The translations under genes were made by a program, and so were the position numbers. Below are positions 42,988 to 59,086 of a stretch of 64,000 nt of DNA, one piece after another. The DNA is from Erysipelotrichaceae bacterium (GTDB taxonomy: Bacteria > Bacillota_I > Bacilli_A > RFN20 > CAG-449), in assembly GCA_015059045.1 (NCBI GenBank), contig SVBD01000001.1, positions 135,876-199,875 on the forward strand. Reading direction: 5' to 3'. A model generated the notes under the pieces. That model ran no database searches. It saw nothing but the letters and a program-made list of their open reading frames with translations, and was not told the DNA's origin. The number at the start of each line of letters is the position of its first letter. Within the stretch, counting starts at the first letter, position 1.

Positions 42988-43829
42988 TAATAAATTATTT
43001 TAATTTCTGTTTCAATAAATAATCCGATATTATTATATAATACTTCTTGTATCCTTTCAATTAATTTAACTAGATTTAGAATATCTAAATCTTTTCTCAA
43101 CTCGATAAAATTTTTATGAGTTTGACAAATAGAATATCCATTATATTCAGTAAAGTTTACATATTTATCAATCAGTTGATAAACTTTTATATTACTTAGA
43201 TTTTTAAATGTTGATCCTAAGCTATGAATTTGAGGCTGATTTTTTATTCGATAATTGATTGCAAGCAATTTATTTTTCAATAATTCATTAAAGCTTTTTC
43301 TTTTTACTTTAAATATCGCTTTATAAATAAAATAACCTTCATCTAATATTTTTATATTAATTTTACGGTAATTTAATTCTACTTCCTCTTTTTTTATAAT
43401 TCTAAAATTACCCTGTTTATCTATTATTAAAAGATATAATAAATTATCTGATATACATTGATCTAAAAAAGATGCATTATTAAAGATACTACCACCTAAT
43501 AAACCTGGAATTGTCATTAATTTTTCAAATCCTGAAATACCATTATTATTACATATATTACCCAGTATGCTTAGCGGCATACCAGAATCGACTACAATTA
43601 AATTTTTATATATTTTCATTTCTTTAGAAATGAACTTAATAATTTTGATTTCTTTATATTTGAAGCAAAATAATGTTTTGGAGGTATTACCTATAAATAA
43701 ATAACCACCTTCTTTTATAATGTTTTTAATCAAAGCAATTGAAGTAGTTTCTATATAAAATTTACATATGGCATCATTTTTAGCGTATGAAATTTCCTTT
43801 AAATTATATTCTCTTTGATAATTAATCAT
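42987..43829 (-). CDS. murB: UDP-N-acetylenolpyruvoylglucosamine reductase MurB-like
   Basis: 280 aa; FAD-binding region resembling MurB ([15 protein letters not shown]). Confidence 0.55.
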
Positions 43830-44418
43830 TTTCTACCTCATTAATTATTTTATCAATTGGATTAATATCAATTTTATATGTGTTTTTTCTTTTCATTGAA
43901 ACAATATGCGCCTCAATATTTTCTTTTGTAAAATCCTTTTCTTTAATTATCGAAATATATTTTTCAAAATATTTTGCATTTTTTTCTTGATGATTGTTTT
44001 TAACATATGGAGAAGGAATACAAACTATTTCTACACCACTTTTTAATACTTCTAATAATGTAGTTGCACCAGCTCTTGTAAATACTAAATCATAATATTC
44101 TAATTCGTACTTCATATTAATTTTTGATTTTACTTTAATATATATTGGGTTTTTATCTCTTAATTCTATAAAACTATTTTGTTTGCCTGATGAACGTCCA
44201 TTTAAAGGGAAAAATAGGTGACAATAATGAGTAGCGTCCTTTTCTATAGCCCATATTTTTATAGTATTTGCTATTATTTCTATAGCGTTATTAGATAATT
44301 CAAGATAATTATCTTTACACTTAATAAATTCTAAATAGATTTCTTTTGGAAATCTTCTTTTCATTTCTTCATCATTAAAAGTATTTTCACCATACATGCT
44401 TAATAATTTATTTTTCAT
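43822..44418 (-). CDS. Glycosyltransferase family 28 C-terminal domain protein (MurG C-domain only)
   Basis: 198 aa; [42 protein letters not shown] matches the MurG C-terminal UDP-GlcNAc-binding region; the N-terminal half of MurG is absent. Confidence 0.55.
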
Positions 44419-44427
44419 GTTTACCTC

Positions 44428-45236
44428 CTAAAATAAGATAATTAATATAATTGAAGCAAAAGATAATACTAACCCAACAATGAAAAAATACATTACAATT
44501 TGGTATTCTTTAAATCCTTTTAATTCTAAATGATGATGAAAAGGTGCCATCAAGAATAAGCGTTTTTTCGTTAATTTAAAAAAACTAACTTGAAGTATCA
44601 CACTTAATGTTTCAAAAATAAATAAACCACCACTAATTAAAAGAAATATTTCTTTATGCAATATAATTGCACTTATCCCTAATAACAATCCTAAAGATAA
44701 CGATCCAGAATCACCCATAAAAATTTTGCTAGGATGGAGGTTAAAACTTATGAATCCTAAAGTCGCACCAAAACTAGAAATCAATAAATATGTTAGGTAA
44801 TATTCCTTTTCAATTAAAGAAAATAAGATAAATGGAATAACCGCCAATAAGTATAAAGAGGAACTTAATCCATCCAATCCATCAGTTAAATTTACGCTAT
44901 TAGAACATCCAACTAAAATAAATGGAAACAAAATAAATATATATTTACCAATATTGATTTTATAATCATTTAATAAATTAATATTTTCAAATAAATAATG
45001 CTCTTGAAGATAATATAAACATATCAATGATAATACTAATTCTAAAAGAAATCTGATTATCGAAGGAATTCCATGATAATCTTTAAATTTAACTTTAATC
45101 AAATCATCAACTAATCCTATCAAGAAAAATGAAGTAATCATAATTATTATTACTTTAAAATAACTATAATTATAATATTGATAATATAAGATAGTAGTAA
45201 ATAAGACACTAATGATAATAGCAACACCCCCTAAAG
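44428..45236 (-). pseudogene. mraY: mraY 3' fragment (about 268 codons), separated from its 5' end by the inserted element
   Basis: The frame is open from 44428 up to a TAA created at the element boundary (45237..45239); it encodes SLGGVAIIS...DGLDGL...MGDSGS MraY motifs; the track ORF begins at an internal Met. Confidence 0.85.
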
Positions 45237-45246
45237 ATGGTGCAAC
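45223..45246. other. Left attachment junction (attL-like): host half-site, AAAG direct repeat, then element terminal IR GGTGCAACTTAGGGATTT
   Basis: The host mraY reading frame stops here; base composition switches sharply; the 18-bp IR matches the right end in 17/18 positions. Confidence 0.7.
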
Positions 45247-45306
45247 TTAGGGATTTACGAAAAACAGTAAATTTTTGAGCGACACCTTCAAGCGGGGCAA
45301 ACAAGT

Positions 45307-45353
45307 AAAGACCACACATAAGGATAAAACCTTGTGTGTGGTCTTTCTTTTTG
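45307..45353. terminator. Strong hairpin terminator at the left inner end of the element
   Basis: Perfect 12-bp stem AAAGACCACACA/TGTGTGGTCTTT with a T-rich tail; lies just 3' of the last cargo gene. Confidence 0.6.
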
Positions 45354-45356
45354 CGT

Positions 45357-45635
45357 TTAATCTTCTCCTGTGAGCAACATCACATCAAGCATCGTTCTTG
45401 CACCGAGCCGAAACGCATACACGAATATTGCCTCTTCTGCAAGGCTGGCGTATTCACTCCAACAATCATCGAACCGTTCTAAAATATCACGTTGCTCATC
45501 GGTCATTGCTTTTAGTAGGTCTTCGTGATGCCGAGCCATATACTCCATTAACTGCTTCATCTCGGGAGTGTTGTTACGGCTATCCGATTGCGGATTTATA
45601 TTGCCGTGCCACAATTCTGCAAGCGTATTTTTCAT
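45357..45635 (-). CDS. Hypothetical 92-aa acidic protein (last gene of the cargo operon)
   Basis: Start reassigned to MKNTLAELW, which has an AAGGAGGTG RBS; no recognisable domain. Confidence 0.5.
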   Translation of the reverse strand: MKNTLAELWHGNINPQSDSRNNTPEMKQLMEYMARHHEDLLKAMTDEQRDILERFDDCWSEYASLAEEAIFVYAFRLGARTMLDVMLLTGED

Positions 45636-45722
45636 ATGCACACCTCCTTGTAGCACAACACTATACCACAGGTCTGCGCATAAGTCCAGATAACAAATTG
45701 TGAACGAAACTTTGCCGCAGAG

Positions 45723-47051
45723 TTAGTTTTCTAAAGAGGCTGAAATATAATTTATACCTTCCAAAAAATAGAATTTGGAAAACTTATCTTTTCCCGCTAT
45801 TGGGCGGAATGTAATTTTTATATTTTTCTTTTTTCTCTTTTTTTGTTTTTCAACCGATTCTGCGTTATTTACTTTTGCATCTTTATAAACAATAATATAT
45901 TTTTCTGCTGAAAATCGTTGACCATGTAATGTAATGCCTAGAACTTTACCTTCAACAGCTATTTCGGAAGAAAGGGGTTCTTCTGCAAAGTCATCTGGTA
46001 TTCGGTCGTAATCACAGCGGGTTTCATCGCAAAAATTCGTTTTTACATGATGCCACTTTCCTACTAATGAAGAAGCTAGGATATATGCAGCTCTATAATC
46101 GCTTGTGTATACATCTCCAATACTAATATCAAATTTGCAACCAGTATGTTTTTCTATTGTAAGAAGGTTTTCAATGTAAGCAATAAGATGAGGGGCATTT
46201 TTAAACATTGGCGCCGACAATTCATTTTCATCCAATGTTGCATTTAACAACTCTTTGTCTCCAATCTTGATGGAAAGTTGCTTTGTTTTACCGATTTCAT
46301 TAATGAGCCGTTCACGAGCTAATTGTACATTCAAATCTAACGACGGAACTTTAGTAATATTAAAATCTGTGCGTGCTACATTATCATAAGCGGTAATTGA
46401 AAAATCAAATCCTTGCCCATTAGAAATTGTGCCAAATATCATTTTCCCATACTCAAGACATGGTTTTCTCCTCAATTGAATTTCGATGATTATATTACCC
46501 GATTGGATTGTGGCGGATACGGCAGGTGGAAACTCCGGTGCACCGATTATAGTTATCATTCCATCACGATATTCCATGTTAGGAAAAGGGTCTTCGATTT
46601 CGCCAAGATATTCTCGGTACGCTGTCGTTTTAAGCTCAACCCTTGTTTGTGTTCTATATGCATAATCCCATGGGGTTTCGGACTTACTCATATGAGGATA
46701 CTTTTTGTAGTCAATTTGATAGGTTCCCTTGATTTTTTTGGGATATTTAGATAATGCATCCGCTGTTTCGGGAGTGCTCACCAAGCGCCCTAAATCAGCG
46801 TTGGGTTTTACTGTAAAATCGGGATACAGTGGGTGAACTTTTTTGGCGGCAGAAAGAAAGTCCGTAAACTGTCTTTGAATAATATCATACTTTCCTATCT
46901 GACCGAGGATCGAAATCATTTCTGGCGTATTATTGCAGAAAACAGGAGACTCAACCGTGCTATCCTGAATAACGACATTGTGATTAGAATTTCTGCCGAT
47001 AGTTGAATTGTTTGATGAAGATTTTTTCCAAAACATAGTCTCTCCGTTCAT
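45723..47051 (-). CDS. Hypothetical 442-aa cytoplasmic protein (candidate effector)
   Basis: ORF with GC-rich codon usage; no Walker A and no TM helix; start codon overlaps (ATGA) the upstream 52-aa TM ORF. Confidence 0.5.
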   Translation of the reverse strand: MNGETMFWKKSSSNNSTIGRNSNHNVVIQDSTVESPVFCNNTPEMISILGQIGKYDIIQRQFTDFLSAAKKVHPLYPDFTVKPNADLGRLVSTPETADALSKYPKKIKGTYQIDYKKYPHMSKSETPWDYAYRTQTRVELKTTAYREYLGEIEDPFPNMEYRDGMITIIGAPEFPPAVSATIQSGNIIIEIQLRRKPCLEYGKMIFGTISNGQGFDFSITAYDNVARTDFNITKVPSLDLNVQLARERLINEIGKTKQLSIKIGDKELLNATLDENELSAPMFKNAPHLIAYIENLLTIEKHTGCKFDISIGDVYTSDYRAAYILASSLVGKWHHVKTNFCDETRCDYDRIPDDFAEEPLSSEIAVEGKVLGITLHGQRFSAEKYIIVYKDAKVNNAESVEKQKKRKKKNIKITFRPIAGKDKFSKFYFLEGINYISASLEN

Positions 47052-47206
47052 TTTTTCACATCACTGTTTTGTATTACTGTATTTCCATCACCTTTGATTT
47101 TTGCTTTTGCTTTGGATTTTCTTTCTATTGTTTTACCTGTAAAGAGACCTGCCACAAAGGTTGCTATAGGGAGCGCAACATCAATAAGCCAAAATTTCCA
47201 ATCCAT
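47048..47206 (-). CDS. 52-aa single-pass membrane peptide, translationally coupled to the 442-aa ORF
   Basis: Encodes MDWKFWLIDVALPIATFVAGLFTGKTIERKSKAKAKIKGDGNTVIQNSDVKK; one TM helix and a basic C-tail; absent from the track because it is under 60 aa. Confidence 0.45.
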   Translation of the reverse strand: MDWKFWLIDVALPIATFVAGLFTGKTIERKSKAKAKIKGDGNTVIQNSDVKK

Positions 47207-47224
47207 TTTAATTCACTTCCTTTG

Positions 47225-47722
47225 TTAATTTTTAGGAATTAGCGTCCGAAAATCAATCCCGTTTGCGCTTGTATCCCATTTTCCTACTTGCATTTGTTTT
47301 ATACGCTTACCGTCACCGAAATCAAGCAAGTCGAGCCTATTGAAATTGTTGAGAATCTTATTCAAACTACCGAGCCCCGCAGAAGACAACAAAAATGCTT
47401 CTGCCGGATCGCACAATTTACAATACGCCCATAACTGACCCAAGTCGTGGAGATTTAACTGTGTTTTCTTAGCTTCTATAAAAACAATGCTTGTCTTTTT
47501 ACCCTTTATGATTATACCGAGAACATCAATTTGAATATCCAAACCCACGGTTTGTGGATAATTGTCTATGACTCCGTATTTCTCAAGAAAAAGGTCGAGA
47601 GTTTGCGCATGAGAGTCAACAGTGATTATTGTTGCCCCCGGATATTTTTCTTCCAAATACGTTTGAAGCCAACACCGCATCGGCTCATATAACTCAAATT
47701 CTTTTTTTACATTATTCGCCAT
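47225..47722 (-). CDS. PD-(D/E)xK-like nuclease candidate (165 aa)
   Basis: Residues D...GLDIQIDVLG...IVFIEAKKT form a D/(D/E)xK pattern typical of the restriction-endonuclease fold; 11-nt overlap with the upstream gene. Confidence 0.4.
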   Translation of the reverse strand: MANNVKKEFELYEPMRCWLQTYLEEKYPGATIITVDSHAQTLDLFLEKYGVIDNYPQTVGLDIQIDVLGIIIKGKKTSIVFIEAKKTQLNLHDLGQLWAYCKLCDPAEAFLLSSAGLGSLNKILNNFNRLDLLDFGDGKRIKQMQVGKWDTSANGIDFRTLIPKN

Positions 47723-48584
47723 AACCTAAGAACCTCGCCAAATCTGTCCAAGAGTCAAAGTGCTTTCCACGAATTTCTTCGGGCAAACTATGGTCGTGCT
47801 CACCAGGATGAAGGGGCTTGCTTGCGCGTTTAACAGTTTTTTCCCAATAGAATTTATGGGTTTTAACTGGGTCGATAAACTCTAAAAGTTCTTCGCTGTA
47901 TTTCTCAAGAGCATCCTGCTTGTGTTTAATGTTGAATCCGACGGCAAGGAACTCATTAGCAAATATTTTAACTTGATGTTCCTTTTTCCAAAAGTTCGGT
48001 TTGCCTTCGTTGTATTTTACTAGCTTTCCGTCTCTAAAGTTGGGATGACCGAAATCAATAGTTTGTACGGGAACATCAATATCCTTGAGCATATTTGCGA
48101 TGTCGATAACCATATACCAATTTCCGGGGATTTCAATATAAACTCTGTGCGCACCGTCTTGACCGAACGCAATATTGCTTTTTCTTATGTATCCTGTAAC
48201 GTCTGCGATTCCTCGAAGCAACGCACGCTTTTGGTCAGAAGTTATAGAAAACAGCTCTGGGTTCATTCTCATAGTTGAATGATGTCTGCCACCGCCAATG
48301 AGACGTATGATTTCTCTCATAACGTATTCATCGTTGGGTTTTGTGAACGAGAGCTTCGTCGAATGGGGCGCTTCAGTAACAACCAAATTGTGCCCAATCA
48401 AAGGCTCTACTATAGAACGAATATCAACAATACTAGCCTTTACATATATTGCGACATCTTTCAAATCGTCCGTGTATAAATTTTTATAAGGAATATCTAT
48501 GGTAACGGTTGTGGTGCTAGTTCCTCTTTGAATTTCACCGTTGCCTAATATCATTCCGAGTAAATATGACATTTCTGCATTCAT
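47712..48584 (-). CDS. Hypothetical protein with two LAGLIDADG-like segments (290 aa)
   Basis: Start reassigned to MNAEMSYLLGMILGNGEIQ, which has an AAGGCGG RBS; a second segment ALLRGIADVTGYI lies about 120 aa downstream; canonical catalytic Asp not conserved. Confidence 0.3.
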   Translation of the reverse strand: MNAEMSYLLGMILGNGEIQRGTSTTTVTIDIPYKNLYTDDLKDVAIYVKASIVDIRSIVEPLIGHNLVVTEAPHSTKLSFTKPNDEYVMREIIRLIGGGRHHSTMRMNPELFSITSDQKRALLRGIADVTGYIRKSNIAFGQDGAHRVYIEIPGNWYMVIDIANMLKDIDVPVQTIDFGHPNFRDGKLVKYNEGKPNFWKKEHQVKIFANEFLAVGFNIKHKQDALEKYSEELLEFIDPVKTHKFYWEKTVKRASKPLHPGEHDHSLPEEIRGKHFDSWTDLARFLGYGE

Positions 48585-48600
48585 AAATATTACCGCCTTA

Positions 48601-49329
48601 TTAAAGATTATATCCGCGTTCAAATTCTGCTTGATAACCTCTATCAATCGCTAGTTTGCGGATTTCAGTTGTGTTTTGTATATCACCAAACCTAAAACCA
48701 TACCTCTCAACAAGAGTAAGAACAAATTTTGACTTATTAATTCTGCCGACACAAGAACCATTTCCTGCGCCCATATTATCTCTTAAAATTTGAGGACAAT
48801 TCCGCAAGCTGGAAAAATTAATTCTAAATTGAGGGCTTAATTTGTTTGGCATTCCACTCGGTGTATCTCCCATAGTGATAGGACGATAGGTCTGTCCGGG
48901 GAAAAGTTCCTCAAAAATATCATCTCTTCCATCCATAGGAACTTCTGCTTCAATTGAACCAATTCTGCCGGGGCGAGCCATATATCCTACCAACTCATAC
49001 ATCTGCTGTTCGTTTCTGACAGCTATAGTCTGCGAACGAGGTCCCAACAACGAGGATGCTGCACGTCCTTGAGAAGAAAACATTTTTGTTGGCTGAATAG
49101 CCTGAGCAGGGTGCGTTGCCGCCGTAGGGGGTGTGGTTAAAACGACTTCCTTGTTAGCTTCATTTACAATGTTTTGAAGTTCGGCGTCAAAAATGGTAAA
49201 GAATTTATCAAATCCTTTTACCAAGAATGTTTTTTCAGCCGTTTCAAATTTGACTTTGATTTGTCCGTTAGCAACAGAGGTAACGATACCATCACCGAAA
49301 ACACGGTGTTTTACTTTATATGCTGACAT
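48601..49329 (-). CDS. Hypothetical protein (242 aa), directly downstream of the MTase
   Basis: ORF abuts the MTase stop; N-terminal small domain, Pro/Ala/Thr-rich linker and a C-terminal domain; no known motif. Confidence 0.45.
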   Translation of the reverse strand: MSAYKVKHRVFGDGIVTSVANGQIKVKFETAEKTFLVKGFDKFFTIFDAELQNIVNEANKEVVLTTPPTAATHPAQAIQPTKMFSSQGRAASSLLGPRSQTIAVRNEQQMYELVGYMARPGRIGSIEAEVPMDGRDDIFEELFPGQTYRPITMGDTPSGMPNKLSPQFRINFSSLRNCPQILRDNMGAGNGSCVGRINKSKFVLTLVERYGFRFGDIQNTTEIRKLAIDRGYQAEFERGYNL

Positions 49330-51441
49330 TTATTTTGCCCCCAATATTTCATAAATTTGGTCTGAGATGGCTTTTGCCATTAAAGGCGGAACAGCATTGC
49401 CTATTTGAGTGCGAATATAAACCTTCGAGCCGATAAATACAAATTTATCATCGAAAGACTGTATTCTAGCCGCTTCACGAGGTGTGATTGCTCTGTGCAA
49501 GAAAGGGTGATTGTTCGTACCGTTGGATGAGGCATCGAAGCGTGTATCAATTGTTGGTGATACAGCATCCCACTTCAAACGTCCCCAAGTACCGCTAAAC
49601 TGTTGTTTTCCGGTTAATTCATCAGGGAGATACTCTTTTCCGCATTCTGGTGGAATCATTTGCAATTTTCTTATTGCAATTTCCGCATGATTAGAAGCCT
49701 TGTGATTATAGAGTTTTTTGCTGCCTTGGCGCATCATTCTTTGATAATCACTTGTGGGCTCGGTAATATATTCTTGTTCAAAATCTCCTTCATTTGAGTT
49801 TAAGTATGCTAAATCATATATAGCATCTCTTACAGTAACGGGAGTAACACAAGTTGGCAACGGCAACGGCACTTTTTTTCTTTTAGAGCATATAAATATT
49901 GCTCTTTGCCGTGCTTGAGGAACACCAAAATCGGATGCGGTCAAAACACCGTAAGACACGGTATAGCCCATTTGCGATACCTTTTCAACAATTTGGTTTT
50001 TGAACCATCCCGCAGAGGTTGACAATAAAGCTTTTACATTTTCAATAACAAATACTTCGGGTTGGAGAATTGAAACTATATTTAAATATTCATTGAATAG
50101 GAAGTTGCGAGGGTCATCTAAACCGAGTTTTTTGCCTTTAAGAGAAAAACCTTGACAAGGGGGACCACCAATAATCATATTGACATTCCTTGCCTTGCTC
50201 AATTCGATAATCCGCTCGCGCACTTTGCTATCAGTGATATCACCCGAAACAACTTCCGTTTGAGGCATATTATATTTAAATGTCTTCAGGGCTTGTTCGT
50301 TAAAATCTAATGCCACAGACGTAGTAAAATGCTCGTTTTTTTCCATGCCATATGACATTCCGCCTGCACCGCTAAATAAGTCCAAAATGCGGAATTCACT
50401 AATTTCGGGATTGTTAAGTCTTCTATTGCGTATCAAAATCCTTTTGAAAACTTCCTTTCCGTTAATTGTTGGCTTAAATAAATCGTATTCATTATCAGAA
50501 CCGTGATTTGCTTCACCTACAATTTCAAATTGTTCGCTGTTATATCTATTGACTATAGTAATAGGAACAGCCATAATACCGGGGTAATCATACGGAATAT
50601 CTGTTATAGTTTTTACGTGAATTGCATCGTAATTATCGTATTTAGGATATTCCTCGGGCGTATACTTCTTGGTCAACGGCAACTCGGTATGTCTTCTATC
50701 ATTATCGAGATTGGTGAGCCACATAGCGTTTCCAAGACTACGCCATTTTTGACCGCTCTCATCAACCCAATATCTTGTTGAGCGCGGTTCAGATGATTGC
50801 GGTACACGGAATTTCATTTCTCCAAATTGATATCCCGTCCATACTTCGTTATTCTGAATTAAAGGAAAAATTTCCTTATATGTAAGAGCATTTTGATTTC
50901 CAATCAGCAAAAAGCTCTTTTTATATTTCATAATTTCAGCTACAATTTCTTTAAATAATGAAAAAGGTGGGTTTGTAACAACAATATCACATTCGCGTAA
51001 ATATTTAATACACTCAGGACTTCTAAAATCTCCATCACCCTTGAGTTTTTTAATTATGCGACTGCCCGAAAGGAAACGCGAAACAAAATCATCTGAAAGT
51101 TCTTCTTTGCCTTCGCCAATTTCTTTTACATCGAGAACATATCCATTATCTGCGCATAAAGGTTCATTCTCGTCATCAAATAAACTTAATTGTGTTGAGA
51201 CAACCTTTGAGGAACGATATGACGTGCATATCAAACGCTTTAGCTGAAGTTTATTAAAGTTTCTTAAAAAGAATTTACAAAAATTAGATTCAAAGGGGTC
51301 ATCACAATTACATAAAACGGTTTTTCCATAAAACTGCTCCGTATAATGGAAAACCTCAGCTTCGATGGTTTCATATGTTGTATAGAATTCATCGTCCCTT
51401 GCGCGTTTTGCCGCTTGAAGGTTCGTGTTCTTATTTCCCAT
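49330..51441 (-). CDS. Fused DNA methyltransferase: N-terminal amino-MTase-like domain plus C-terminal C5-cytosine MTase
   Basis: N-terminal half contains DIVVTNPPFS, the motif IV of N6A/N4C MTases; C-terminal half contains LFSGAGG (motif I), GGPPCQGFS (motif IV), ENV (motif VI), QARQR (motif VIII) and GNAVPP (motif X); AGGAG RBS. Confidence 0.85.
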   Translation of the reverse strand: MGNKNTNLQAAKRARDDEFYTTYETIEAEVFHYTEQFYGKTVLCNCDDPFESNFCKFFLRNFNKLQLKRLICTSYRSSKVVSTQLSLFDDENEPLCADNGYVLDVKEIGEGKEELSDDFVSRFLSGSRIIKKLKGDGDFRSPECIKYLRECDIVVTNPPFSLFKEIVAEIMKYKKSFLLIGNQNALTYKEIFPLIQNNEVWTGYQFGEMKFRVPQSSEPRSTRYWVDESGQKWRSLGNAMWLTNLDNDRRHTELPLTKKYTPEEYPKYDNYDAIHVKTITDIPYDYPGIMAVPITIVNRYNSEQFEIVGEANHGSDNEYDLFKPTINGKEVFKRILIRNRRLNNPEISEFRILDLFSGAGGMSYGMEKNEHFTTSVALDFNEQALKTFKYNMPQTEVVSGDITDSKVRERIIELSKARNVNMIIGGPPCQGFSLKGKKLGLDDPRNFLFNEYLNIVSILQPEVFVIENVKALLSTSAGWFKNQIVEKVSQMGYTVSYGVLTASDFGVPQARQRAIFICSKRKKVPLPLPTCVTPVTVRDAIYDLAYLNSNEGDFEQEYITEPTSDYQRMMRQGSKKLYNHKASNHAEIAIRKLQMIPPECGKEYLPDELTGKQQFSGTWGRLKWDAVSPTIDTRFDASSNGTNNHPFLHRAITPREAARIQSFDDKFVFIGSKVYIRTQIGNAVPPLMAKAISDQIYEILGAK

Positions 51442-51468
51442 TTTTATCTCCTAATAATGGTTAAATTT

Positions 51469-51678
51469 TTAATTGTTGTCGGGTATGACTTCCATAATGT
51501 CTCCGACATCGCATTCCAATGCTTGACATATTCTCACAATCACTTCGGTATTAACATTTTCATCGTGACCGAGCTTTGCCATTGTACCTCTGCTTATACC
51601 GGTAGCAGCAATAAGGTCTTTTTTCTTCATTTTTTTATCAATTAGCAATTTCCATAGTTTGTTATAGCAAACAGCCAT
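51469..51678 (-). CDS. XRE-family HTH regulator (C-protein-like controller and/or element repressor)
   Basis: 69 aa from the ATG MAVCYNKLWKLL, which has a GAGGTG RBS; HTH segment DLIAATGISRGTMAKL; 27 bp upstream of the MTase and divergent from the primase gene. Confidence 0.7.
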   Translation of the reverse strand: MAVCYNKLWKLLIDKKMKKKDLIAATGISRGTMAKLGHDENVNTEVIVRICQALECDVGDIMEVIPDNN

Positions 51679-51879
51679 ATCGCACCTCAAATAAAATTTT
51701 TGTTTTAGATATTATATCACAGATAGCAAGAAAAGGCAATATATTTTACTAAAATTAAAAGCATTTTTGTCAAAGGCTTTTGAAAAATGTTCATATTTGT
51801 AGACTTTTTCTAAAGTGCCATCCGTTCCTTCCGGGGAGCGGATTTTTTATTTTCTGAAGATTTTTCAAAAAGGGGCTTA

Positions 51880-52460
51880 AAAAATGTCGTTTTCGTGAGC
51901 TACCTATGAGGAAAAATTTATGCAAAGGGGGTTAACTTTTGCCGTTTTCGTGACCTACCAGTAGAGGAAAAAAATTATTTTTGCTAAACCCTTCAATTTT
52001 TTCCATTACCGAGGCTTGTATATGAGAGGCGGAAAGATTTATAAACTTTTTTTCAAAAAGCGGACCAAAGCCGATAAAAATCTCCAACCAGGTAGTGAGG
52101 AGAGAAAAATTATCTTTTTTTCGTAAAAGCGGACCAAACGGCATTTCATTTTCCAGCCAGGGGATGAAGAGAGAAAATATTAAGATTTTTCTCGTTTCGG
52201 TGGAAAAACGACTCTCGATTCTCCAACAGGTGGTGAAATGGAAAATATTTTTTGAAGATTTTTCGGAAAACTCCCCCCCCAATATGCCACTCAAATCTCC
52301 GTATAACGAAAATCGAAAAATTTTTTTGAAAAACGGGTCCCCAATAAGCCCTCCAAATCTCCGTATAACGAAGGCGGTAAAAATCATTTGTTTTTTTTCG
52401 ATTTTCACGATTTGGTGGAAAAACGGCTTTCCATTTTCCAACTGGGGAGTGAAGGCACCC
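51880..52460. repeat. Array of about 8 degenerate direct repeats (period about 65-70 bp; iteron-like) in the 840-bp non-coding region upstream of the primase-helicase gene; putative replication origin
   Basis: Recurring cores TCTCCAACCAGGTAGTGAGGAGAGAAAAATTA, TTTTCCAGCCAGGGGATGAAGAGAGAAAATATTA, TTCTCCAACAGGTGGTGAAATGGAAAATATTT, TTTTCCAACTGGGGAGTGAAGG, plus two copies of AAATCTCCGTATAACGAA and two of CGTTTTCGTGA(G/C)CTACC; a C8 tract at 52273..52280. Confidence 0.7.
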
Positions 52461-52528
52461 AACAACCAAGAAAGGAGGTACACCGATGAACACAACGCTT
52501 ACAACAAAAATGAAAGGAGGTCGATACG

Positions 52529-54820
52529 ATGCAGGATTTTATGGCGGAGCTGAAAGCAATGTCCATATGGTTTCATTGGCATTGGGAACAGGATAAGAAC
52601 GGACGGCAGACCAAAGTGCCTCACGCAGCAAGAGGCGGCGCAACCGGAACTTCCGAGCAGTGGGCGCATACGTGGGTCACATATGAAGATGCACTTGCCC
52701 TGAAAGATGAGCAACACGCCTCGGGGCTTGGCTTCAAGGTACCTGATGGCTACTTCTTTCTTGATGCCGATCATTACGGACTTGAAGATCCCTTTATACA
52801 AGTGCTCCTTGAACGCTTCAATTCATATACGGAACGTTCGGTCAGCGGCGGAGGCATCCACATCTACGGCAGATGCGATGTCGGAAAGCTACCCATTGTT
52901 ACCGATAAAAACGGAAAGCAAAAGCTCGACGGCGCATTCTACGTAAAAAATCCCGGCAACCGCCTTGAACTTTATATCGGTGATCTTACCAACCGCTTTG
53001 CCGTATTCACCGGAGACGTGGTATGGGAGCAACCTCTTAAGGAATGCACCAATGCCGTGCTTACAACCCTCGATAAAAATATGCGCCGATCCGAAAAGAA
53101 GAAGTACAGCGAAAGCCGTGATGGGGACAAGGTTACCTTTGACCTCATATGCAATCTGCGAAAGCAGAAGAACGGAGATAAATTTCGTAAGCTCTTCGAT
53201 GACGGCGATATCAGTGACTACGGTTCTCACTCTGAAGCCGATGCCGCCCTGTGTGCCTTGATAGCCTTTCGCGCCGGGGATGACCCCGAGATGATTGATA
53301 TGCTCTTTCGACAATCAGCTCTCTATCGTGAGAAGTGGGAGCGTGATGACTATCGGAGTGCCACTATCAACATCGGCATTCGTGCCTGCAACGGAGAGTA
53401 TCACCGCTCCAAAATGCCTCATCCGTATTTTATCAAGTTTGACGATGATGGAATTCCTCACATTTGCGTTCCACTCCTTGCCAAATACGTGCGAGAGCAT
53501 CTTTGCTATCTGCTTGTCCGTGATAACGGCAAACAAGGACTCCTTCGGTACGTTTACGATGAGGACGGATGCTACCGCTTATATTCCTCGGATATGTTCC
53601 TCGGGGCAATCAAACGGTTTATTGCCGACTATGATGAGGAGCTTGTAAAAATGAGCAAGGTCAATGAAGTCTTACAGCACATCAGCACCGACCTCAACTA
53701 CATCAGCCAAGAGGAGCTTGACAGTAATGAGAGCATCATCAATTTCAAGAACGGCTTGCTGCAAGTAACAGAGACGGACACAACGCTCCTTATGCATACT
53801 CCCGAGGTCATCTCTACCATACAGATTCCGTGCGAGTGGCGTGGGCATCCGACCCCAACACCGGTATTTGACCGTTATATGCATACCCTCACCAACGGAG
53901 ATAAAGCCACCGAGGAACTTCTCCTGCAGTTCATAGGCGCGTGTATTTCCAATATAAAAGGATGGCGAATGAAAAAATCCCTCTTCCTTGTGGGTGACGG
54001 CAATACGGGTAAATCACAGCTCAAAAGCCTCGTGGAGCGGTTGCTCGGCAAAGGCAACTTTATCGGTATCGACCTCAAAGAGATCGAGGCTCGGTTCGGC
54101 ACGGGTGCTGTATACGGCACTCGTCTCGCAGGTAGTTCAGATATGAGCTTTCTCACCGTGGACGAGCTTAAGACCTTTAAGAAAATGACGGGCGGTGACA
54201 GCCTTTACGCAGAGTTCAAGGGTCAGCAAGCCTTTGAGTATACCTACGGCGGGTTGCTTTGGTTCTGTATGAATCGCTTGCCGAAGTTCGGAGGTGACGA
54301 TGGGCAATGGGTATATGACCGCATTATGGTCGTCAACTGTCCCAACGTGATACCGAAGGACAAGCAAGACAAAAAGCTCCTCGATAAGATGTATGCCGAG
54401 CGTGAGGGCATCGTTTACAAAGCTGTAAAAGCCTTGCAGACCGTTATCGCAAACGGCTATAGGTTCTCCGAGCCTGAATCCGTAAGCCTTGCACGTGAGC
54501 GTTATATGAACGAGAACAGCACGGTGGTCTCCTTCTTTGAGGAGTGTATGTGTCCGCTCCCCGGCGGCAAAATCAATCCCCATTGTACTACCGGGCGCAT
54601 CTTCCGTGTGTACCAGGCTTGGTGCTTTGAGAACAACCACGGCTATGCAAAGTCAGCCAAGGAGTTCCGAGAGGAGCTTGCCGACTACCTCGGTACTACT
54701 CATGCTGATATGACTATGCGCCAAAAAGGAAACACCTACTACCGCGAGTACACGCTTACGCTTGAAACCAAGGAGCAATATTCAAGGGAGTACGGCTTTG
54801 ATACCACGGAGTTCTTATGA
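52529..54820 (+). CDS. Replication primase-polymerase/SF3 helicase (phage/plasmid P4-family primase, D5-like)
   Basis: 763 aa; N-terminal prim-pol motifs (FFLDADH, SGGGIHIY); C-terminal SF3 helicase Walker A GDGNTGKS; AAGGAGG RBS. Confidence 0.8.
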   Translation: MQDFMAELKAMSIWFHWHWEQDKNGRQTKVPHAARGGATGTSEQWAHTWVTYEDALALKDEQHASGLGFKVPDGYFFLDADHYGLEDPFIQVLLERFNSYTERSVSGGGIHIYGRCDVGKLPIVTDKNGKQKLDGAFYVKNPGNRLELYIGDLTNRFAVFTGDVVWEQPLKECTNAVLTTLDKNMRRSEKKKYSESRDGDKVTFDLICNLRKQKNGDKFRKLFDDGDISDYGSHSEADAALCALIAFRAGDDPEMIDMLFRQSALYREKWERDDYRSATINIGIRACNGEYHRSKMPHPYFIKFDDDGIPHICVPLLAKYVREHLCYLLVRDNGKQGLLRYVYDEDGCYRLYSSDMFLGAIKRFIADYDEELVKMSKVNEVLQHISTDLNYISQEELDSNESIINFKNGLLQVTETDTTLLMHTPEVISTIQIPCEWRGHPTPTPVFDRYMHTLTNGDKATEELLLQFIGACISNIKGWRMKKSLFLVGDGNTGKSQLKSLVERLLGKGNFIGIDLKEIEARFGTGAVYGTRLAGSSDMSFLTVDELKTFKKMTGGDSLYAEFKGQQAFEYTYGGLLWFCMNRLPKFGGDDGQWVYDRIMVVNCPNVIPKDKQDKKLLDKMYAEREGIVYKAVKALQTVIANGYRFSEPESVSLARERYMNENSTVVSFFEECMCPLPGGKINPHCTTGRIFRVYQAWCFENNHGYAKSAKEFREELADYLGTTHADMTMRQKGNTYYREYTLTLETKEQYSREYGFDTTEFL

Positions 54821-54828
54821 CCCCTTGG

Positions 54829-54958
54829 GTAGCAGAGGTAGCAGTAGTAGCAGTTTCAAAATCTTCTCAGCAAAATTCAAAAAACTTTATAAGTAGGTGT
54901 GTAGGTAGAAAGAAGATATAAAAATCTGTCAGCAGAATTGAAATTACTGCTACCTCTG
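54829..54958. repeat. 17-bp inverted repeat pair (GGTAGCAGAGGTAGCAG / CTGCTACCTCTGCTACC) separated by about 95 bp, just 3' of the primase gene
   Basis: Seen directly in the sequence; an additional GTGTAGGTAG/CTACCTACAC pairing; a possible 14-codon leader ORF (MIVFTDAEGPVKSL) with a strong RBS follows. Confidence 0.5.
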
Positions 54959-55134
54959 CTACCTACACGAAAGGAGGTGGTGCCTATGATTGTGTTTACC
55001 GATGCCGAGGGCCCGGTCAAATCTCTGTGACTAAAAATACGTACAGCGGGCAAGGGCTTTCACGCGCAAAAATTCGAATTCAAACGGGGTATTAACCCCT
55101 AATTCAAACATTCATCAAGAAAGGAACAATTATT

Positions 55135-55416
55135 ATGAAATTTAAGCCTATTTACAACAAAAAATTCCGTGTTTCCGCATCGGACAGAGATGCATTCTCG
55201 ACCAAGGACTACACCTGTATGTTCATTCTGCAGACGATGAAGGGAAAGCCCGTGGCGGTGTCGAGGGCAAACGACCCGGATTTGCTCATTTGGAGAGTGC
55301 AGTACGGCTTTTCTACCATCTACTTCGCTGACTATGCCGAAGCGATGGATTTCTGCCGTGAGCATTTTTGTGACCTCGACGGCAAGAAGCTGAAGAAGGC
55401 AAAGGAGAAGAAATAA
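55135..55416 (+). CDS. Hypothetical protein (93 aa)
   Basis: ORF in the element's GC-rich codon usage; first of a small operon. Confidence 0.4.
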   Translation: MKFKPIYNKKFRVSASDRDAFSTKDYTCMFILQTMKGKPVAVSRANDPDLLIWRVQYGFSTIYFADYAEAMDFCREHFCDLDGKKLKKAKEKK

Positions 55417-55709
55417 TGTTTCGGCTTTCAAATTATTTTCAGAAGCATTTGAAAGGATATATAGATTTCGATGCCTTCGTTCTTATTGCCGTTATTCCCC
55501 GTAGAAAGAAGTCTGCGGTAGTGCTTCTCGCACCGAAATACGAGCGCGAATATTGCTACTTCGCATTACAATGCGGAAAAGAAAACAGCTATCATTCGTC
55601 TCTCGACAATATGCTGAAAGCCGCCCATAAGAGTTACGGAATCAGCAAATTCAAGCTGTGGCGTTGTCGCAAACGTTATGAACGTTTCAAAAGGAGTGGT
55701 CGCATATGA
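55416..55709 (+). CDS. Hypothetical basic protein (97 aa)
   Basis: ORF; ATGA overlap with the upstream gene. Confidence 0.4.
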   Translation: MFRLSNYFQKHLKGYIDFDAFVLIAVIPRRKKSAVVLLAPKYEREYCYFALQCGKENSYHSSLDNMLKAAHKSYGISKFKLWRCRKRYERFKRSGRI

Positions 55710-55987
55710 AAAGATATTATCCTCTCATTGATATGGATACAACCGGGACGATAAAGGTGCCGATGTTTCCTGCCAATGATTACAAAAAAGCATTACGGAG
55801 GAGTAATTTTGCTCTCGGAGAGGTTACCCGTAACCGCTACCGCTTGATTGCCGTGACTCCTCATGCTATGAGAGATTATCTCTCTTACGACATCCGTTGT
55901 CCCAAGTGCGGTGCGACAATGGATGTAACCGAACCGCACGAAGGTGAGTATGTTCTCGGAGAATATACTTGCGAAAACTGTCAATAA
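55706..55987 (+). CDS. Hypothetical zinc-ribbon protein (93 aa)
   Basis: CPKCG...CENC four-Cys arrangement at the C-terminus. Confidence 0.4.
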   Translation: MKRYYPLIDMDTTGTIKVPMFPANDYKKALRRSNFALGEVTRNRYRLIAVTPHAMRDYLSYDIRCPKCGATMDVTEPHEGEYVLGEYTCENCQ

Positions 55988-56007
55988 AATTTTGGAGGTA
56001 TAAAACT

Positions 56008-56946
56008 ATGACGATTGACGCTATTAAAGAAAGAGACTATGCCTTGGCTATGTCCGAATACGATTATGCGTTTTGGAATGCCGTAAAGCGCAAACCCCAC
56101 AATGCCCAGGAATTAAAAAAAGGTATTTGGGCTGAAAACGCATATCTTCCGCTTGGAGGAAATTTAAAAATGACCGCTGCCCTCAAGAGAGAAAGCGTAT
56201 TCCGTTCACTCGCTACCATTGCATATTTGAGAGATCCCGGCGGTATCGTTCTCGCAAAGCATTGCACCACAGAGAGCTGTTGGGTGCCCGAACACGGAAT
56301 GTATACCTTTACCCAGGGCGAAGGTGAATTTACAAATTACAATATCAAAGCTCATAAGCTCGGAGCTCTTCTCAAGTACGATGAGGTGTTTATGACAGAT
56401 ATCGGTCTTGATATGGAAAATCATCTGATCGACAGCATTGCAAAGAGTTTCGGTGCGATGGAAGATGCCGCTTATGTAAACGGCACGGGAGATATTCAGC
56501 CCACCGGTATTCTCCATAACACACGTGGTGCGCAGATTGGAGCAACTACTGCGGCTCTCACTTATGAGGATGTAGTCAAGCTCTACTTCTCGGTCAAGCC
56601 TGAATATCGCAAGCATGGGACTTGGATGATGAACGATGAGACCGCATACTATCTCCGCACTCTCAAGGATGAAGGCGGCAACTACATTTGGAATCATACC
56701 AACGATACCATTCTCGGCAAGCCTGTACGCATTTGCAATGATATGCCGAGCATCGGTGCCGGAAACAAGCCTATTGCATTCGGAGATTTCTCCTACTATT
56801 GGATTATTCTCCGTGATGACGTAAGTATCAATATCCTCAAGGAGCTTTACTATGATATGGGGCAGGTCGGCTACATCGCCCGTGAATATCTCGATGCAAA
56901 GCTTATCCGTCCCGAGGCAATTAAGGTCATTCGGATGACCGAGTGA
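56008..56946 (+). CDS. Phage major capsid protein, HK97-fold family
   Basis: Start at MTIDAIKERD, which has a GGAGG RBS; C-terminal ILGKPVRICNDMP...IAFGDFSYYWIILRD region is characteristic of HK97-type capsid proteins. Confidence 0.6.
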   Translation: MTIDAIKERDYALAMSEYDYAFWNAVKRKPHNAQELKKGIWAENAYLPLGGNLKMTAALKRESVFRSLATIAYLRDPGGIVLAKHCTTESCWVPEHGMYTFTQGEGEFTNYNIKAHKLGALLKYDEVFMTDIGLDMENHLIDSIAKSFGAMEDAAYVNGTGDIQPTGILHNTRGAQIGATTAALTYEDVVKLYFSVKPEYRKHGTWMMNDETAYYLRTLKDEGGNYIWNHTNDTILGKPVRICNDMPSIGAGNKPIAFGDFSYYWIILRDDVSINILKELYYDMGQVGYIAREYLDAKLIRPEAIKVIRMTE

Positions 56947-56956
56947 GGACGAGCCT

Positions 56957-57124
56957 ATGGAGAAAACCAAGGAATGCTCTCATAAGACCGAAACCGTTAT
57001 TGACGGCACGGTCTATATCGTGGAATCGGTGAGTGCCGAATCCGCCAAGGACGTGGTGTACGGCAAGGTGAAAAAGCTCATCCTTGACCACGCAAAGTTA
57101 TCCGTAAGTTCACAAGCATCATAA
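56957..57124 (+). CDS. Hypothetical small protein (55 aa) upstream of the recombinase
   Basis: Encodes MEKTKECSHKTETVIDGTVYIVESVSAESAKDVVYGKVKKLILDHAKLSVSSQAS; not in the track because it is under 60 aa. Confidence 0.35.
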   Translation: MEKTKECSHKTETVIDGTVYIVESVSAESAKDVVYGKVKKLILDHAKLSVSSQAS

Positions 57125-58876
<1,752 letters not shown>

Positions 58877-58888
58877 CCCAGGGATTAA

Positions 58889-58914
58889 AAATCCCTAATT
58901 TGCACCCACAAAAG
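58889..58914. other. Right attachment junction (attR-like): element terminal IR AAATCCCTAATTTGCACC followed by the AAAG direct repeat
   Basis: Mirror image of the left end; host mraY coding resumes immediately on the minus strand. Confidence 0.7.
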
Positions 58915-59086
58915 TCGGGGTCAATTTTTTATTTTGATGATTTTCAAATAAATAAGTGCTAATCGCTTGTCCTTTTACATGCTTTTTCTGAATTTTAATT
59001 ATTGATTTATTTAAAATTAAACTAACAACAAAAGACATAAAGAAACAACATATAGATGTTAATCCTATATACGTTTGGCTAAACAT
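58892..59086 (-). pseudogene. mraY: mraY 5' fragment (first about 58 codons plus an element-derived FVGAN tail)
   Basis: Encodes MFSQTYIGLTSICCFFMSFVVSLILNKSIIKIQKKHVKGQAISTYLFENHQNKKLTPT, matching the MraY N-terminus up to the conserved TPT(M/L)GG motif, then runs into the element IR and a TAG. Confidence 0.8.

Follow-up and report, generated by a model that had tools for sequence, protein, structure and literature searches.

An integrative island in an Erysipelotrichaceae genome carries a probably undescribed restriction-modification family combining a predicted inactive LAGLIDADG-fold protein with a separate PD-(D/E)XK nuclease

Analysis of a 64,000-nucleotide (nt) stretch of an Erysipelotrichaceae genome (GenBank assembly GCA_015059045.1, contig SVBD01000001.1, positions 135,876 to 199,875; hereafter "the window"), supported by neighborhood comparisons, profile searches and structure predictions, points to a restriction-modification (R-M) system whose restriction enzyme has a new architecture and recognition fold and which is probably both undescribed and widespread. 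The system lies in a row of eight genes on an integrative island (Table 1). Its core (47225-51678) is likely to be a two-subunit, Type IIS-like R-M system in which a LAGLIDADG-fold protein of 290 amino acids (aa) that has lost its active sites would read the DNA and a separate 165-aa PD-(D/E)XK nuclease would cut it. We are highly confident that the finding as a whole consists of a probably undescribed R-M family, an independent AbiGii-like gene pair, an optional accessory gene and a backbone gene of the mobile element; the operon is a chain of independent defense modules and not one system.

The conserved unit consists of two methyltransferase (MTase) activities together with the 290-aa and 165-aa proteins. 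A scan of 185,579 species-representative genomes found a relative in 292, and components were counted by tblastn in the best 80 loci (L025-L104), which belong to different species and stand at 66-88% protein identity. All 80 share one order, namely an adenine-N6 (m6A) MTase, a cytosine-C5 (m5C) MTase, the 290-aa gene and the 165-aa gene, and the components themselves were detected in 77, 80, 80 and 79 loci, respectively, with the misses at contig ends. MTase genes beside a nuclease gene and inherited with it are expected of a Type II R-M system, and this arrangement was found in 80/80 loci and in distant members too. The other genes recurred rarely or not at all: a helix-turn-helix (HTH) gene of the window's type was present in 15 of the 80 loci, a 111-aa open reading frame (ORF) of the relatives in 10, the 242-aa and DUF6809 genes in one each, and the 52-aa and 442-aa genes in none. 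The level of identity across phyla points, as far as sequence comparison can tell, to recent cross-phylum transfer, with some binning errors possible among metagenome-assembled genomes (MAGs).

The same unit recurs on several kinds of mobile element. Elements of the human gut that resemble integrative and conjugative or integrative and mobilizable elements (ICE/IME; L011-L016) carry the m6A MTase, the m5C MTase, the 111-aa ORF, the 290-aa gene and a 166-aa gene, followed by Gabija, with 58%, 69%, 86% and 85% identity to the window for the m6A, m5C, 290-aa and 166-aa genes. A minimal cassette that does without the 242-aa gene is found in L020-L024 (HTH_3, m6A MTase, m5C MTase, 290, 165), and a 6.5-kb plasmid of Lactiplantibacillus plantarum has room for just rep, a fused 700-aa MTase gene, genes for 292-aa and 168-aa proteins, and a toxin-antitoxin pair. 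Two gut phages also bear the cassette, and carriers of the 290/165 family include Streptococcus suis, Ruminococcus torques ATCC 27756, R. albus 8 and L. plantarum (among them strain P9). Counted as clusters at 90% identity, relatives number 1,785 for the 290-aa protein and 2,678 for the 165-aa protein; in the annotated plasmid and phage records that were read, and wherever else a source names them, these genes are called hypothetical. According to their titles, the 80 loci come from Bacillota, Bacteroidales, Alphaproteobacteria, Desulfobulbaceae, Treponema, Saccharibacteria and Gastranaerophilales, mainly of animal guts, and many are MAGs.

The original prediction, made from the letters of the window, had taken all eight genes for a single new multicomponent defense system, a reading that we now regard as very improbable. 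Its description of the locus was largely accurate. All eight ORFs between 45357 and 51678 are present, intact and oriented alike on the minus strand, and the junctions from the HTH gene to the DUF6809 gene measure +27, 0, +16, -11, +18, -4 and +87 nt; the gaps are thus 27 nt or less apart from the one of 87 nt, as had been stated, whereas the three overlaps claimed are two overlaps and one abutment. Such tight, co-oriented spacing favors a single system, as does the absence, in a consensus scan of both strands, of a terminator-like hairpin from the junction of the 165-aa and 52-aa genes; because of these two features, the 165-aa and 52-aa genes are probably cotranscribed here. The neighborhoods argue otherwise. 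Of the six genes that had been left without assignment, only the 290-aa and 165-aa genes travel with the MTase, and the 52-aa, 442-aa, 242-aa and DUF6809 genes have the near-zero counts given above. In L011-L016 the 165-aa gene is followed by Gabija instead, the 52-aa and 442-aa genes occur elsewhere as a pair that stands alone or behind a Type III or BpuJI-like R-M system, and the DUF6809 gene has a promoter-like site of its own (45660-45688, within the 87-nt gap), which, like the other promoter-like sites reported here, is a consensus match from a scan whose number of sites in the region equals the shuffle expectation. What stood of the prediction is defense cargo on an integrative, satellite-like island, part of which is described in no library searched; what fell is the eight-gene unit. 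For annotation, the lesson is that independent defense modules can be stacked on a mobile element as one tight row of co-oriented genes.

Nor is the MTase the only confidently assignable product, as had been assumed, since the HTH_26, DUF6809 and AbiGii-like proteins can be assigned as well. The 242-, 290-, 165- and 52-aa proteins had no significant match in Pfam, NCBIfam, PHROGs, PADLOC or PDB sequences, and single-sequence and profile searches of PDB sequences gave no match for the 290, 165 or 442 families.

The 703-aa MTase matches Pfam EcoRI_methylase over residues 7-339 (E = 5e-120) and C-5 DNA_methylase over residues 350-697 (E = 9e-69). The fused amino-MTase/C5-MTase proposed earlier is thereby covered nearly end to end by the two domains and, judged by these matches, is a true fusion of an EcoRI-like N6-adenine MTase and a C5-cytosine MTase, both full-length. 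The halves are separate genes in most relatives (58% m6A and 69% m5C identity to the window) and are fused in L105, L106 and L107. Adenine and C5-cytosine MTase activities protect one asymmetric site in the Alw26I/Eco31I/Esp3I systems, where the two activities are sometimes fused and the restriction enzymes are HNH enzymes. Assignment to the Alw26I/Esp3I/BsmBI MTase group was rejected, since the C5 domains of Alw26I/Eco31I/Esp3I-type enzymes are circularly permuted (PMC5944983) and that of the window is collinear with Pfam DNA_methylase positions 1-323. MhoVII, another R-M system with a fused MTase, proved unrelated, its MTases being of the YhdJ and D12 classes.

For the 290-aa protein, the original prediction had noted two LAGLIDADG-like segments, and the predicted structure bears this out: the model is a monomeric double alpha-beta-beta-alpha-beta-beta-alpha fold with two LAGLIDADG-like helices (LLGMILGNG and LRGIADVTG). 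Its fold matches include PI-SceI (15.1), PI-PfuI (14.8), WhiA (14.2) and I-DmoI (13.3), the top 50 Foldseek matches are all LAGLIDADG proteins, and no solved restriction enzyme is among the fold matches listed. The positions that hold the catalytic Asp or Glu in active enzymes are occupied by N15 (81 N, 3 R) and T130 (81 T, 3 A) in 84 family sequences; across 29 diverse members (25-86% identity) they are never D or E, and relatives have R, K, A or G there. The protein is therefore best modeled as a meganuclease fold without canonical active sites, as in WhiA. WhiA, a transcription factor with a C-terminal HTH and with neither nuclease partner nor MTases, is a precedent for a dead LAGLIDADG reader. 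Three Cys residues occur in the C-terminal tail of most relatives, and the clade of the window is without them.

With LAGLIDADG homing endonucleases such as I-Tsp061I, I-DmoI and PI-SceI the 290-aa protein shares the monomeric double fold and the two helices, and homing endonuclease genes are mobile, so that a selfish gene of this kind might have entered an R-M locus by chance. We consider this the least probable of the alternatives, indeed barely credible. Unlike those enzymes, the protein has no catalytic acids, both positions being non-acidic in all members, and it has no intron, intein, target-gene or other homing context; in 80/80 loci its gene stands at one unchanging place, after the MTase and before the 165-aa gene, and it is coinherited with its nuclease partner even at 27-33% identity.

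The second subunit is predicted with greater clarity. The AlphaFold2 model of the 165-aa protein (predicted local distance difference test [pLDDT], 84.7; predicted template modeling score, 0.83) has its best matches among PD-(D/E)XK nucleases, including NgoMIV (9.1), and among Type IIS cleavage domains it matches PaqCI (8.9), FokI (8.6), N.BspD6I (8.6) and the BspD6I small subunit (8.4). D66 is conserved in 85/85 sequences and both E83 and K85 in 84/85. The model thus agrees with the earlier guess of a PD-(D/E)XK nuclease, and we take the protein to be one that resembles Type IIS cleavage domains and has an intact catalytic motif. Family libraries and a Walker A scan revealed no NTPase or ATPase domain among the eight operon proteins; the sole regex match, AGLFTGKT, lies inside the transmembrane helix of the 52-aa peptide and is a chance match, so that the absence of Walker A motifs noted originally holds.

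Several observations tie the two subunits together. Their genes, which overlap in the window, abut or overlap in every other context whose gene calls were read. A restriction enzyme encoded by one frameshifted gene was considered and rejected, because the gene boundaries recur in all gene-called contexts read, at 27-99% identity. Full-library HMMER searches uncovered single-chain 290-165 fusions of ~540-557 aa, composed of a LAGLIDADG domain, a Lys/Glu-rich linker and a C-terminal nuclease-like domain; P0404 is one, and P0388 (557 aa), whose gene stands next to two amino-MTase genes, is another, with 35% identity to the 165-aa protein in its C-terminal domain (E = 4e-21). The long linker of these forms is consistent with Type IIS-like cleavage at some distance from the site. 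In L108 (1187-5675), a 557-aa single-chain protein with a zinc-ribbon insert is encoded beside two amino-MTases of other families and a MarR-like gene, and after the fused gene comes one for a 165-aa paralogue of the fusion's nuclease domain, with N-R-E in place of E-x-K. The presence of this E-x-K-less paralogue hints at dimeric action of the nuclease module. More distant pairs (27-33% identity; 316-321 aa plus 156-168 aa) stand beside N6_N4 MTases in L109, L116 and L117. The nuclease side of the family is thus paired with unrelated MTase families and in this respect resembles the usual behavior of restriction enzymes.

The LAGLIDADG-like domain is not confined to these forms, as it is found at the C terminus of proteins of 991-1299 aa, including P0423, whose gene stands beside an MTase gene. 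In L110 (1211-11186), the 991-aa protein with this C-terminal domain has a large N-terminal region without assignment, and its gene adjoins those for an N6_N4 MTase and a 1853-aa DEAD/RecQ-type helicase with an RNase_T domain. L110 may be a different, larger system that uses the same reader domain. Scans of viral contigs with P0388 and P0354 gave no match.

Several points weigh against the reading of the core as a dead reader and a separate cutter. First, the model of the 290-aa protein is of medium confidence (pLDDT, 71.6), and the most conserved loop, GHPNFRD, falls within its four disordered stretches. Second, the usual target of a LAGLIDADG protein spans 14-22 bp, and a restriction site of that length would be of limited use. 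Third, a characterized member of the family may exist in REBASE, and this is the main caveat on novelty. The fourth and fifth concern which protein is the enzyme: H180, H203, H275, E202 and E262 could form a second active site in the 290-aa protein, and a PD-(D/E)XK protein of 165 aa might, at least in principle, suffice by itself as a restriction enzyme.

The fourth point has a basis in the conservation of the 290-aa family. Among 84 sequences, H180, N182, R184, D185, E202, H203, Q204, K206 and H259 never vary and E262 and H275 almost never do; most of these residues are also kept across the 29 diverse members. They lie in His/Glu-rich motifs (GHPNFRD, KEHQVK, HPGE and GKHF; residues 178-206 and 259-275), partly in regions that are disordered in the model, and they may hold the partner, grip the DNA backbone or form a second active site. 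If the last were true, the enzyme would be a heterodimer with two active sites, each cutting one strand, as in BtsI and BsrDI. Nine invariant residues would be in keeping with this, whereas residues that read bases would be expected to vary. The partner of the fused enzyme in L108 is a nuclease paralogue without E-x-K, so that what counts there may be dimerization and not a second nuclease site. On the other hand, the conserved residues fit no known nuclease motif, the region is partly of low confidence in the model, and structural comparison matched them to no nuclease active site. We judge a catalytic 290-aa subunit to be unlikely, although it is the foremost of the alternatives.

Slightly less likely again is a small, complete Type IIP-like enzyme formed by the 165-aa protein, with the 290-aa protein as a WhiA-like DNA-binding regulator outside it. 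The existence of single-chain fusions of the two proteins speaks against this reading, as do the 11-nt overlap of their genes in the window and the abutting or overlapping genes of other gene-called contexts. Two different MTases point to an asymmetric site, beyond what a small homodimer would read, the best matches of the 165-aa model include nonspecific Type IIS cleavage domains, and in L108 the fused form stands beside a separate MarR-type regulator.

We return to the two-subunit enzyme as the preferred reading. In the mechanism that we propose, the bifunctional MTase would mark an asymmetric site, placing an adenine-N6 methyl group on one strand and a cytosine-C5 methyl group on the other. 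The 290-aa monomer, having lost both catalytic acids, would bind the site when it is unmethylated and recruit the 165-aa nuclease, which would cut nearby in the manner of a Type IIS cleavage domain and is probably dimeric, so that both strands would be cut. The HTH protein may tune expression of the operon, and the 242-aa protein would be an optional accessory. Our confidence in the division of labor between reader and cutter is moderate: the analysis shows folds, conserved residues, synteny, fusions and modularity, and methylation specificity, DNA binding by the 290-aa protein, cleavage, a recognition site, stoichiometry and protection against phages are inferred. The earlier statement that the operon does not look like a single-polypeptide Type II or Type IIS enzyme was wrong in spirit, as the best reading is a two-subunit, Type IIS-like restriction enzyme.

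Restriction enzymes are thought to use five catalytic folds, and the LAGLIDADG fold is not known among their recognition parts. Nothing like the core 290/165 system was found in Pfam, NCBIfam, PADLOC or PDB sequences, and the full-text literature, REBASE being outside the scope, yielded no natural LAGLIDADG restriction enzyme or defense system. The word LAGLIDADG is absent from a 266,000-character review of Type II enzymes from 2014 (PMC4081073). Closest in function are Type IIS enzymes of the FokI/PaqCI type, along with the heterodimeric enzymes BtsI/BsrDI and BspD6I (PMC1950550). Unlike in FokI and PaqCI, to which PDB sequence searches detected no sequence similarity, the proposed reader and cutter are separate polypeptides in most members, and the proposed reader has a LAGLIDADG fold in place of their recognition domains. 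The small subunits of BtsI and BsrDI have a canonical PD-(D/E)XK site, which they need to cut both strands; the motif and the predicted fold of such a site are present in the 165-aa protein. Their large subunits are related to BsmI and have a PD-Xn-E-X12-QR site of their own (PMC1950550), whereas the 290-aa protein has neither this motif nor a BsmI match. The MTases differ as well, being amino-MTases in BtsI and BsrDI and an m6A plus an m5C enzyme here. A further parallel comes from engineering, in which inactive I-SceI was fused to FokI or PvuII (PMC2685105, PMC3258161). In these laboratory constructs, with an 18-bp site and no MTase, a dead meganuclease reads and a restriction-type nuclease cuts, as we propose here, and P0388 and P0404 even have a long linker between the two parts; the family described here differs in being natural and paired with methylation.

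We lean slightly toward regarding it as the first natural restriction-enzyme family to combine a dead LAGLIDADG reader with a detachable FokI-like cutter, occurring in two-subunit, single-chain and larger fused forms and with at least three MTase combinations, and spreading across phyla in animal guts via plasmids, phages, ICEs and satellite-like islands. If so, it would be the natural counterpart of the engineers' dead meganuclease with a FokI-type cutter and would mean that the LAGLIDADG saddle is adaptable to the short sites that defense requires. It would also supply a new, separable reader/cutter pair for enzyme engineering, possibly with new Type IIS specificities, and give a function to two "hypothetical" families of ~1,800 and ~2,700 clusters at 90% identity.

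Downstream of the core, the 52-aa and 442-aa genes (45723-47206) form a separate two-gene module, presumed to be of the abortive infection or toxin type. The 442-aa protein matches PADLOC AbiGii (E = 1.4e-13; 291/378 profile positions) and is itself below Pfam detection; 4 of 24 members of its family match Pfam AbiGii_2, with a best E value of 7.5e-8, and the family is small (97 relatives). In all five independent contexts that were examined, a gene for 52-60 aa precedes the 442-aa homologue, and the MTase/290/165 cassette is absent from all five; the homologues of the 52-aa peptide in L017 and L019 are ~60% identical to it over the aligned region. The pair was found behind a BpuJI-like R-M system (L019, 5812-7302), behind a Type III R-M system (L113, 4828-6305), at a prophage end (L017) and elsewhere. 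As the pair immediately follows R-M systems of three unrelated types, including the one described here, it may have a preferred "second line" place behind such systems. The lactococcal AbiG system consists of AbiGi and AbiGii. To AbiGii the 442-aa protein is distantly homologous, but its partner is a 52-aa membrane peptide rather than AbiGi, and the module is not a canonical AbiG system; none of the eight operon proteins matched AbiGi at E <= 0.1 in Pfam or PADLOC. The C-terminal end of the 52-aa peptide (GNTVIQNSDV) resembles the N-terminal end of the 442-aa protein (NHNVVIQDSTV), and the motif is conserved in both families (A1, A6).

The remaining genes of the row are optional or belong to the element. 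The 69-aa XRE-family HTH protein, whose gene starts with an ATG behind a GAGGTG ribosome-binding site, is by sequence a probable controller of the R-M operon and an optional part of the cassette. Of 63 evaluable loci, ~20 have a small HTH-type ORF upstream of the MTase genes, in four kinds that are unrelated in sequence, and an HTH_3 protein occupies this position in L020-L024. A second promoter-like site, of the TTGACA type, lies ~30 nt farther upstream of the one listed for the HTH gene in Table 1. The 242-aa protein is an optional accessory outside the conserved core: its gene occupies the same slot in the diverged cassette of L107 (51% identity), its single occurrence among the 80 loci (L077) is a 153-aa version of the C-terminal domain that lies upstream of the cassette and not in the slot of the window, and the phage and plasmid collections contained no match to it. 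In L011-L016 (7653-7988) the 111-aa ORF sits between the MTase and 290-aa genes; it does so in 6 of the 80 loci (L045, L046, L050, L055, L074 and L086) and is nearby in 4 more. Three collinear motifs common to this ORF and the C-terminal domain of the 242-aa protein suggest distant homology, which is unsupported statistically (BLAST E = 0.32; hhalign probability, 1.3%; neither significant). The DUF6809 gene, which adjoins the backbone genes DUF6076 and AAA_25 in L019, is a backbone gene of the mobile element. It is followed directly by the hairpin listed in Table 1, in agreement with the terminator that had been predicted after the last gene.

Table 1. Features of the eight-gene row and of the island that carries it (window positions)
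Feature	Position	Strand	Basis or remark
Promoter-like site TTGCCT-17-TGnTATAAT	51711..51739	-	Consensus match, upstream of the HTH gene
XRE-family HTH protein, 69 aa	51469..51678	-	Pfam HTH_26, E = 3e-22
Bifunctional DNA MTase, 703 aa	49330..51441	-	Pfam EcoRI_methylase and C-5 DNA_methylase
Accessory protein, 242 aa	48601..49329	-	Without family match
Double-LAGLIDADG-fold protein, 290 aa, proposed recognition subunit	47712..48584	-	Predicted fold
PD-(D/E)XK nuclease, 165 aa, proposed cleavage subunit	47225..47722	-	Predicted fold; 11-nt overlap with the 290-aa gene
Single-pass membrane peptide, 52 aa, partner of the 442-aa protein	47048..47206	-	Hydrophobic window, residues 5-23
AbiGii-like protein, 442 aa	45723..47051	-	PADLOC AbiGii
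DUF6809 protein, 92 aa	45357..45635	-	Pfam DUF6809, E = 7e-23
Hairpin with 17-bp stem, likely terminator	45307..45346		Directly 3' of the DUF6809 gene
Integrative island, 13.7 kb	45241..58904		GC contrast, terminal repeats, restored mraY frame

The island itself stands out by a GC content of 35-49% in the block at ~45.2-58.9 kb, against ~27% in the host. A TGCA core is present at 45241-45244 and 58901-58904, the inverted terminal repeats match at 15 of 16 positions, and joining the island flanks restores the reading frame of mraY, which places the insertion inside this host gene. Besides the eight genes, the island encodes a D5-type primase/helicase (52529-54820), an HK97-type capsid protein (55969-56946) and a large serine recombinase (57143-58852), as assigned from the Pfam matches of identical genes. 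Identical island genes occur on 14 metagenome contigs, and because the same island recurs in this way it is not an assembly artifact.

At the insertion site, the host mraY coding sequence is split after about codon 62 (44428-45141 and 58895-59086). The adjacent "murG" (43822-44418) has just 198 aa and is chimeric, combining GSIII_N and Glyco_tran_28_C, whereas murE, a gene for a penicillin-binding protein, ftsA and ftsZ appear intact. With mraY split and "murG" short and chimeric, the lipid II pathway of this Erysipelotrichaceae MAG looks broken. The same insertion in mraY is present on three long contigs from different samples.

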